Assembly (NCBI RefSeq): GCF_009931435.1
Contig: NZ_CP043414.1
DNA: 64,000 nt
DNA from: Escherichia coli
GTDB lineage: Bacteria; Pseudomonadota; Gammaproteobacteria; Enterobacterales; Enterobacteriaceae
Reading direction: 5' to 3' (one strand)
Shown here in pieces: positions 42,344 through 43,957 of the stretch (positions are counted from its first letter, which is position 1; each line of letters opens with the position of its first letter). A program made the position numbers and the translations under genes. A model generated the notes under the pieces. It made no database searches. It was given only the letters and a program-made list of their open reading frames with translations, and was not told the origin of the DNA.

Positions 42344-42724
42344 ATGATTCGCACGATGCTGCAGGGCAAACTCCACCGCGTGAAAGTGACTCATGCGGAC
42401 CTGCACTATGAAGGTTCTTGCGCCATTGACCAGGATTTTCTTGACGCAGCCGGTATTCTCGAAAACGAAGCCATTGATATCTGGAATGTCACCAACGGCA
42501 AGCGTTTCTCCACCTATGCCATCGCAGCAGAACGCGGTTCGAGAATTATTTCTGTTAACGGTGCGGCGGCCCACTGCGCCAGCGTCGGCGATATTGTCAT
42601 CATCGCCAGCTTCGTCACTATGCCGGATGAAGAAGCCCGTACATGGCGACCCAACGTTGCTTATTTTGAAGGCGACAATGAAATGAAACGTACTGCGAAA
42701 GCGATTCCAGTTCAGGTGGCCTGA
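42344..42724 (+). CDS. panD: aspartate 1-decarboxylase proenzyme
   Basis: 126-aa ORF with the self-cleavage Gly-Ser site (EGSCAID). Confidence 0.95.
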
Positions 42725-42727
42725 TAA

Positions 42728-43957
42728 TCACCCCTGCGGCTGGTTACTCACCAGCCGCGACATCGTCTCCAGCGAATCCGTTCTCAAGATATAAAGTCGT
42801 TTTAACAATAACGGATTATCCCCAGGTTTAACTTTGCCTTTCATGGTGGTCACTGCCAGATGAAATCCGGCTTCACGTGCCGCCTTCACCGCTTTGTCAT
42901 TAAATCCGCCAAACGGATAAGAAAGATACAAGACATGTGGATTAAACTGCGCCAGCGCCCGGCGCGATCGCGCAAAATCAAACAGAATATTGTGCTCACT
43001 ACGGCTCAGTAATATGGGGCGGCGATAGCCATCTATCCGATGCAAAAAATGAGTATGTGACTGGAAATCAAATACATCACGAATTTCGTTAAGCTCAGAA
43101 ATGCTCATAAATTGCAGCGATTTTGGATCCCATTTCTGCGGGTGACGTTTGATGCGCGAGGTAACAATAAATGCCGTCGCCTTCATACCATAGTGTTTCA
43201 ACACAGGATACGCATAGCGGCTAACCGACTTGAGACCATCATCAAAGGTAATCACCACGGCACGTGCCGGGAGATTAATGTTATTCTGCACGTAACCTTC
43301 CAACTGCGTCATGCTCAGTGTCGCGTACCCCCTGTCGCGCAGCCAGGCCATCTGGTTATTGAAGGCGCGTACCGAGGTGGTCGTCGAAGTATGGCGAAAA
43401 CGGGTGTTTTCTTCGTCGCGCAGAATATGATGATAGGTTAGCACCGGCAGGCCATTGTCGGGTTGGGCATCCAGTGCACTGATATAGGCCAGTCGTTCGC
43501 CAATACGGACCTGATACCAGGTTTGGTTTAACCTGTCTTTCAGTTTATGCAAAATCGGATAACGCAAATTGTCCGCCAGTACCCCAAATGGCGCACTGCC
43601 CACACTCGGCGCGTTATAAACCGGCGTATCTTTCCAGGTAATTAAGTTCTGATTACTCAGCGGCTTGTTGAGGTCACCCAAACCGTCTTCAACTTTTTGT
43701 CGCCCCTGAACCGGCTCGAGATGACCTTTATCGATAAACCCTTTGCCAAAGCCAAAATTAAATGCGTAATAACTTGCGGCAGTGGGCTCCACGGCAATGA
43801 TTTGTCCGGCCCGAATATTCCCTACCGTCACCATTTTGTCGCCAATTTGCGCCCAGACCGCAGCATTTTCGATGGTTTGCATATAACGGGCAGGCAATGC
43901 GGCACTGACGCTTGTGGTAAACAGCATCAGCAGGAGAATAACAGCTTGTTTATACAT
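42728..43957 (-). CDS. yadE: polysaccharide deacetylase family protein (secreted)
   Basis: 409-aa ORF with signal peptide and NodB-type deacetylase region; synteny. Confidence 0.8.

Follow-up and report, generated by a model that had tools for sequence, protein, structure and literature searches.

The window, that is, the whole 64-kb stretch of Escherichia coli DNA analyzed here, contains the two convergent genes panD and yadE. panD (42344-42724, + strand) encodes aspartate 1-decarboxylase (126 residues), and yadE (42728-43957, - strand) encodes a 409-residue protein of the polysaccharide deacetylase family. These assignments are based on the ORF list, on Pfam matches (PF02261 Asp_decarbox, 7.5e-47, for panD; PF01522 Polysacc_deac_1, 1.9e-20, for yadE) and on RefSeq annotation, including that of E. 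coli R32_14_1F, a strain that is collinear with the window, 99.1% identical to it over panD-yadE and annotated with the same CDS coordinates. Direct reading of the sequence from 42716 to 42739 (...GTG GCC TGA TAA TCA CCC CTG CGG...) places the panD stop codon TGA at 42722-42724 (+) and the yadE stop codon TGA (tca on the + strand) at 42728-42730 (-), separated by the 3-nt spacer TAA (42725-42727). The spacer is in frame with panD and forms a tandem second stop codon in the window strain; it is TTG in K-12 and varies between relatives (tta, caa, cacgtt and others). The sequence-only reading had placed the stop codons 3 bp apart, and its coordinates and spacing are right according to the sequence, the ORF list and the RefSeq annotation of a K-12-like E. 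coli genome, in which panD (146314-146694) and yadE (145081-146310) are again 3 nt apart. The identical spacing in RefSeq confirms the 3-nt junction and makes it already implicit in public annotation. Nearly all other complete E. coli genomes show an identity of approximately 94% to the window locus, and panD-yadE is present in 5424 of the 5426 genomes of that set. Upstream of panD, a promoter-like site (TAGACA-17-AATACT, 42249-42277, +) is weakly suggested by a consensus scan in which the count of such sites was not above the shuffle expectation.

Is the near-zero spacer between panD and yadE peculiar to this locus? The window contains nine convergent CDS pairs with gaps of 3, 40, 46, 53, 64, 70, 157, 201 and 220 nt, and panD/yadE is the only one of the nine that has no room for a hairpin in the gap. 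A YadE scan of species-representative genomes identified 67 loci, 43 of which were combined with the window and two E. coli genomes into 46 sequences with a convergent panD. The stop-to-stop gap ranges from 1 to 6 nt in 40 of these 46 Enterobacteriaceae sequences and is exactly 3 nt in 18; larger gaps are found in Kluyvera (32-35 nt), Franconibacter (46 nt) and Siccibacter (64 nt). At 21 further loci, the neighbor is not panD, and the end of another convergent gene lies 0-6 nt from that of yadE. This other neighbor closes a chaperone-usher fimbrial operon and is 358-423 codons long (Pfam Fimbrial). With both neighbor types pooled, the gap between yadE and its convergent gene is 0-6 nt in 61 of 67 Enterobacteriaceae sequences. 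The near-zero gap with panD as well as with the fimbrial neighbor argues that, as judged from these sequence comparisons, the tiny spacer next to yadE is a design conserved independently of the converging gene and no chance oddity.

A stem-loop lies immediately beyond the junction, inside yadE. The panD-strand RNA contains a perfect 9-bp G+C-rich stem-loop at 42736-42758 (+), GCGGCUGGU-UACUC-ACCAGCCGC, which corresponds to the DNA inverted repeat GCGGCTGGT-TACTC-ACCAGCCGC and consists of a 5' arm (42736-42744), a loop (42745-42749) and a 3' arm (42750-42758), with an optional U·G pair between 42735 and 42759. The hairpin starts 11 nt past the panD stop codon and is located wholly within yadE codons 400-408 (S-R-L-V-S-N-Q-P-Q). 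It dominates the predicted fold on both strands, with dG values of -18.5 and -19.5 kcal/mol, and both the hairpin and its 3' flank are identical in K-12 despite an overall divergence of approximately 6%. Membership in a repeat family was ruled out given that the hairpin has a single match in the 64-kb window, even with 2 mismatches allowed. An Rfam search of 41000-45000 at E<=1 returned two chance-level hits, neither of which is located at the hairpin.

A canonical intrinsic terminator combines a G+C-rich hairpin with a U-tract that directly follows it, and the window has the hairpin and lacks the U-tract. The 3' tail of the hairpin, GACAUCGUCUCC, has a maximum of 2 consecutive U residues, the upstream sequence UCACCCCU contains no A-tract, and there is no T-run on either side. 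Because of the missing U-tract, a scan for hairpins followed by T-runs reports nothing at the junction. The sequence-only reading had concluded from the spacing that there is no room for a terminator on either strand. This statement is correct for the 3-nt spacer itself but fails with respect to a 3'-end signal, since the conserved stem-loop at 42736-42758 is accommodated inside yadE.

The codons that encode the stem are under unusual synonymous constraint. Across 65 yadE orthologues analyzed in 9-codon windows (approximately 325 windows), codons 400-408 form the window of lowest synonymous diversity in the gene (H of 0.186 versus a gene mean of 0.457). The stem codons are nearly invariant (Arg401 CGG in 63/63, Pro407 CCG in 64/64 and Ser400 TCG in 57/59), whereas the loop codon Ser404 and the flanking codons Thr398 and Gly409 vary freely. 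In a synonymous-codon randomization, recodings of the YadE C-terminal peptide that fold as stably as the native sequence account for 0.3% in the panD sense (P = 0.003) and 0.1% in the yadE sense. A reciprocal yadE 3' structure embedded in panD was also considered and rejected, given that the last 15 panD codons exhibit ordinary synonymous diversity (0.36-0.44 versus a mean of 0.40) with no dip.

These observations bear on the reading that the palindrome has no function and is either a by-product of the YadE C-terminal peptide and codon bias or a protein-binding palindrome in DNA. The peptide LETMSRL[VI]SNQPQG is itself highly conserved, and CTG, CAG and CCG are common codons, both of which favor this reading. 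However, the scarcity of equally stable recodings and the restriction of the constraint to the stem codons, with variation left to the loop and flanks, are at odds with this reading. Moreover, CGG is a rare arginine codon in E. coli, and its invariance at Arg401 counts against a codon-bias by-product. The no-function reading is strongly disfavored, and we consider it very improbable; covariation in the stem, the strand on which mismatches are tolerated and the position of the mapped RNA 3' end, all described below, speak against it further.

Stem pairing is maintained in 97.7% of the alignment cells over 48 distinct sequences, compared with 13-55% for slid controls. Double-changed cells number 12 at 2 pairs, and none of 500 shuffles gave a value as high, although one variable pair provides most of this signal and related sequences inflate shuffle tests. 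The count of further pair types was not above that of the shuffles. Pair 8 is either G-C (Val GTG opposite Asn AAC) or A-U (Ile ATC opposite Asn AAT), and on a neighbor-joining tree its state changes at least 18 times. Kluyvera exhibits a C-G to U-A double change in the stem, and Superficieibacter electus replaces U-A with G-C through two amino acid substitutions, L402R and Q406P. Besides the two pairs with double changes in the alignment, a further compensatory pair occurs at a locus that was left out of it (L016). Thus, compensatory changes beyond relatedness, the hallmark used here for a conserved RNA structure, are present, with most of the signal from one pair. Amino acid changes that covary so as to keep the stem are not expected if the palindrome is a by-product of the peptide.

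Which strand does the selection act on? One-sided variants retain G·U pairing in the panD sense only (A·C in the yadE sense) in 25 cells and show the opposite arrangement in 3 cells. At pair 8, the split is 14 versus 1 in favor of panD-sense G·U. Among the taxa with tiny gaps, 376 of 378 cells pair in the panD sense versus 362 of 378 in the yadE sense. This one-sided G·U tolerance, which would be unexpected for a DNA palindrome, argues that the selected structure is the panD-sense RNA and neither a DNA palindrome nor an element of the yadE mRNA, and it indicates that the panD-sense RNA structure is probably the only one under selection. Conservation, covariation and the strand-specific G·U pattern were recorded across approximately 65 species. 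A role in the yadE sense as a terminator or translation element was rejected: the hairpin is located inside the ORF, a 3' end formed there would clip the stop codon, and A·C mismatches occur on the yadE strand.

Two published maps place the 3' end of the panD mRNA directly after this hairpin in K-12. Term-seq identified a dominant panD 3' end at MG1655 146275(-), classified as 'primary' for panD and 'antisense' for yadE (Adams et al. 2021, eLife, PMC7815308). In Supplementary file 1 of that study, which has three condition tabs, panD appears three times, with read counts of 125366 and 41034 in two of the rows. The U at position 146275 is the fifth nucleotide beyond the stem (...ACCAGCCGC-GACAU); it lies 39 nt downstream of the panD stop codon and 36 nt into yadE. 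The independent TRS method located the primary panD terminus at 146272/146273 and listed the same hairpin (-18.5 kcal/mol), a 43-nt 3' UTR and no more than 2 consecutive U residues (Nat Commun 2023, PMC10687069). In both K-12 maps, the dominant panD end therefore lies 5-8 nt after the hairpin, 39-42 nt past the stop codon and 36-39 nt inside yadE. An RNA 3' end right after the palindrome is a further observation that the no-function reading leaves unexplained. Neither K-12 dataset (the Adams 2021 Term-seq or TRS) lists a yadE terminus, and panD is not mentioned in the TERMITe supplements.

Transferred to the window through the identical sequence, the steady-state panD mRNA 3' end would be positioned at 42763-42766 (+), equivalent to MG1655 146275-146272, and the window strain presumably behaves like K-12 at this end. 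Since the K-12 end maps inside yadE, the panD mRNA must be complementary to every yadE mRNA over its final 36-39 nt, and the panD 3' UTR and yadE, including its stop codon, share an obligatory antisense overlap that corresponds to 42728-42766 (+) in the window. That the two transcripts must overlap at their 3' ends, as anticipated from the sequence alone, is thus documented for panD in K-12 by Term-seq and TRS, and ExcludonFinder lists yadE-panD among 165 convergent overlapping MG1655 pairs that were seen in half or more of 58 RNA-seq samples (NAR 2025, PMC12288877). Because a stem-loop embedded in yadE sets the panD end, the overlap is short, precise and built in and does not represent uncontrolled read-through. 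Taken together, the yadE-embedded hairpin very probably defines the 3' end of the panD mRNA.

How does the hairpin produce this end? One possibility is that it acts as a weak intrinsic terminator that releases RNA polymerase without Rho despite a poor U-tract. An end 5-8 nt after a stable G+C-rich stem matches the geometry of intrinsic termination, and transitional cases have been discussed by Dar & Sorek (2018). Moreover, outgroup genera carry true intrinsic terminators at the same place. In taxa with larger gaps, a separate hairpin occupies the gap. In Franconibacter and Siccibacter (46 and 64 nt), it is a canonical panD terminator with a hairpin and a U-run, and the coding hairpin in yadE has been lost (dG of 0 to -2.6); neither genus is placed as a clear outgroup in the neighbor-joining tree with midpoint rooting. 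Some taxa have a partly U-rich tail after the yadE hairpin, such as GACAUUGUUUCC, and some direct termination by the hairpin could occur for this reason. However, the tail GACAUCGUCUCC in the window, with no more than two U residues in succession, is overlooked by the terminator scan, and a Rho-dependent signal of read-through is found downstream. Release by the hairpin itself is therefore an unlikely account of the panD end.

The downstream signal was obtained from K-12 treated with bicyclomycin. Adams et al. (2021; Supplementary file 2, PMC7815308) report that Rho terminates transcription antisense to yadE in a region at 145798(-), with a Rho score of 7.18 and a significance of 8e-27. Its equivalent in the window is 43240 (+), approximately 480 nt beyond the hairpin; the region was derived from 800-nt coverage windows and carries no panD assignment, although it agrees with a Rho-dependent panD transcript. 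Downstream of the hairpin, C exceeds G modestly on the + strand (100-nt windows spanning 42700-42949 have GC skews between -0.13 and -0.19), and the C-rich, G-poor tract at 42759-42950 (+) may serve as a Rho-loading (rut) region. The consensus scan identified no promoter-like site on the + strand between 42349 and 45000, so read-through from panD would be the simplest source of the RNA terminated in the Rho region.

We propose that the coding-embedded hairpin marks and protects the panD mRNA end through Rho termination and subsequent exonucleolytic trimming, and we assign this explanation, the best available, a probability of roughly 70%. RNA polymerase that transcribes panD would pass the stop codon into the yadE antisense strand and synthesize the 9-10 bp G+C-rich hairpin. 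Since the hairpin is not followed by a U-tract, most polymerases would probably continue past it into untranslated, C-rich antisense RNA, and Rho would terminate this read-through within a few hundred nucleotides. 3'-to-5' exonucleases would subsequently degrade the RNA as far as the hairpin, so that a precise end remains 5-8 nt beyond the stem. Trimming, not termination induced by the hairpin, would thereby create the panD end, and the Rho termination would presumably be specific to panD read-through. The step in which Rho terminates transcription in the yadE antisense region ahead of trimming to the hairpin is, taken by itself, slightly favored over its absence.

The features of the panD end correspond to a known class of bacterial transcript ends. 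Dar & Sorek (2018) described Rho-dependent transcripts whose precise steady-state ends lie just after stable stem-loops that lack a U-tract and an upstream A-tract. Such stem-loops occur also inside downstream coding regions, are followed by an enrichment of C over G and, once termination has taken place further downstream, shield the RNA from PNPase and RNase II. The panD end shares several of these properties: in the K-12 maps it is located a few nucleotides after a stable stem-loop without a U-tract or A-tract, C modestly exceeds G downstream, and the hairpin lies inside the coding region of the downstream gene. The panD hairpin differs from this class in that its host coding region, yadE, is on the opposite strand, so that the hairpin is overprinted in antisense on the C-terminal codons of a convergent gene. 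In sharing a G+C-rich hairpin 9-14 nt after the stop codon, the panD end also resembles intrinsic terminators, the canonical version of which is found at the homologous position in Franconibacter and Siccibacter; unlike these, it has no U-tract in Escherichia and most other genera.

The convergent arrangement raises the alternative of a collision-type bidirectional terminator, in which the hairpin pauses both polymerases, and their release by head-on and trailing collisions needs neither Rho nor a U-tract and produces precise 3' ends on both strands. A convergent pair, a stem-loop without a U-tract at its boundary and a palindrome that folds on both strands all suit this model, which explicitly requires a stem-loop to position the collisions (Wang et al. 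2022 preprint, 10.1101/2022.10.23.513370). panD/yadE is like the bidirectional terminators of Ju, Li & Liu (2019) and Wang et al. (2022) in its convergent genes, non-canonical boundary stem-loop and overlapping 3' regions. It differs from them in that only the panD strand has a mapped end, the hairpin is intragenic and not intergenic, selection seems to act on one side, and there is a Rho signal downstream of panD. In addition, if the yadE mRNA ended 5-8 nt past the hairpin, its stop codon would be hit and a non-stop mRNA would result, ribosomes on yadE would melt the hairpin, and the hairpin is equally conserved next to the fimbrial operon. Given the single mapped strand, the clipping of the yadE stop codon and the one-sided selection (25 versus 3 cells), the collision model is quite improbable at this locus.

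Because the two transcripts overlap, the main significance of the junction could alternatively be that of a regulatory excludon, in which panD and yadE control each other in antisense, either through transcriptional interference, for which the sequence-only reading saw scope, or because RNase III cleaves the duplex of their 3' ends. In the sense of overlapping transcription from oppositely oriented neighbors, yadE-panD is an excludon according to both Table 1 of ExcludonFinder and the mapped panD end, and it is itself a listed member of the E. coli 'excludome' (PMC12288877). That list is based on coverage and is silent on the embedded hairpin and the exact 3' end, and 'excludon' denotes here the overlap alone. 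Perfect complementarity over at least 36 nt is unavoidable and would permit duplex formation. However, yadE appears to be weakly expressed, as no terminus was called for it in the K-12 datasets, and the conserved feature is an intramolecular hairpin that would compete with an intermolecular duplex. Moreover, an unrelated convergent gene is found in the same arrangement elsewhere, and this favors a 3'-end module of general use over panD-specific regulation. Mutual regulation is accordingly an explanation that we regard as unlikely.

The comparison of genera provides further detail on how the 3'-end signal has been retained or exchanged. In E. cloacae, the fimbrial operon lies between panD and yadE. 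panD has its own 12-bp hairpin without a U-tract 7 nt past its stop codon, and the fimbrial gene that abuts yadE ends 8 nt upstream of the yadE hairpin and uses that hairpin position. The spacing of the genes, the panD 3' end and the 'excludon' listing were already public, and the panD end is a tidy example of an already known type of bacterial transcript end that involves no new mechanism. What is added here, as far as sequence comparison can indicate, is that selection appears to maintain the hairpin as a strand-specific RNA element within the C-terminal codons of yadE, and that this element appears to have been retained through a swap of the convergent neighbor and exchanged for intergenic terminators in some genera.

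A bolder reading, which we consider rather doubtful, is that the last ten yadE codons have a dual function, with their sequence and even their amino acids dictated mainly by the hairpin that serves whichever operon converges, be it the one with panD or, in other genera, a chaperone-usher fimbrial operon. If so, the yadE 3' end would be a portable, coding-embedded 3'-end module whose 0-6 nt spacing is kept by selection through repeated gene-order rearrangements, and translation of yadE, which would melt the sense copy, or its transcription might be coupled to the stability of the convergent mRNA. More generally, a zero-spacer junction illustrates how a neighbor's 3' stem-loop overprinted on a coding sequence can constrain synonymous sites and even C-terminal residues.

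The location of the hairpin also has practical consequences. Terminator predictors that are limited to intergenic DNA or need a U-tract miss the panD 3' end. Deletion or synonymous recoding at the 3' end of yadE would abolish the panD hairpin, would probably perturb panD and could alter expression of the pantothenate pathway. Keio-type deletions would have this effect on the hairpin, since they leave only about six codons at the end of the gene. Because changes at the yadE 3' end could alter panD, the phenotypes of yadE mutants need to be controlled for this effect. Finally, the locus offers a natural series for the switch between intrinsic and Rho-dependent or protective 3'-end formation, with an intrinsic terminator in the gap, a hairpin without a U-tract in the gap and a hairpin without a U-tract inside the neighboring gene.

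Another convergent pair of the window, can (46368-47030, + strand) and hpt (47071-47607, - strand), offers a contrast at its junction (47028-47073). A gap of 40 nt separates the two genes and accommodates a single hairpin, GCCGGATG-CAACA-CATCCGGC, which carries a T-run on the hpt side only and is flanked in K-12 by Term-seq 3' ends on both strands (141973 - and 142003 +; PMC7815308). The shared can/hpt hairpin is intergenic, in contrast to the panD/yadE hairpin, which lies inside yadE. At the panD end, the TGA is followed in frame by the TAA of the spacer, generating a tandem stop in this strain (42722-42727), whereas K-12 reads TGA TTG at the same position. 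Within panD, synonymous diversity across 46 orthologues reaches its minimum at codons 38-46 (42455-42481), at 0.19 versus a mean of 0.40.

What does gene order reveal about the yadE junction? We compared E. cloacae (locus L072, 11249-20678) with the window (32116-42724). The window and E. coli have the order folK, yad-type fimbrial operon and panBCD, converging on yadE, while E. cloacae and approximately 20 other species have folK, panBCD and the fimbrial operon, converging on yadE. Under either order, yadE lies within 0-6 nt of the last gene. A block translocation linking the two orders would have had to regenerate the tight yadE junction.

Deeply diverged yadE alleles exist within Escherichia (window 42728-43957 versus comparison loci L003, L004, L005 and L046). 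YadE of the window shares 95.8% amino acid identity with that of the K-12-like genome and only 85-86% with those of E. coli E69, E. whittamii and others, unlike the adjoining panD, which is 98-100% identical. YadE of the window and YadE of E69 do not differ over their final 46 residues. A promoter-like match inside yadE (ATGAAA-18-GATAAT, 9/12, 42815-42844, - strand) is a consensus match only, from a scan in which the count of such matches did not exceed the shuffle expectation. If genuine, this putative promoter would drive transcription over the hairpin and into panD in antisense.

The pan cluster is itself split in the window by the oppositely oriented rpnC/yadD (41150-42070, - strand; Transposase_31/Rpn nuclease family), located between panC (40078-40929, + strand) and panD; these two pan genes are direct neighbours in E. 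cloacae, 56 nt apart. ExcludonFinder counts panC/rpnC, too, among its convergent excludons (PMC12288877). In K-12, strong Rho termination maps to a region antisense to yadD at 147624 (Rho score 16.9; PMC7815308). A 12-nt tandem repeat in four copies inside rpnC (41276-41323) encodes (EKGI)n. Because RpnC comprises 306 residues here and 300 in the K-12-like genome, the comparison suggests that the repeat copy number varies between strains.
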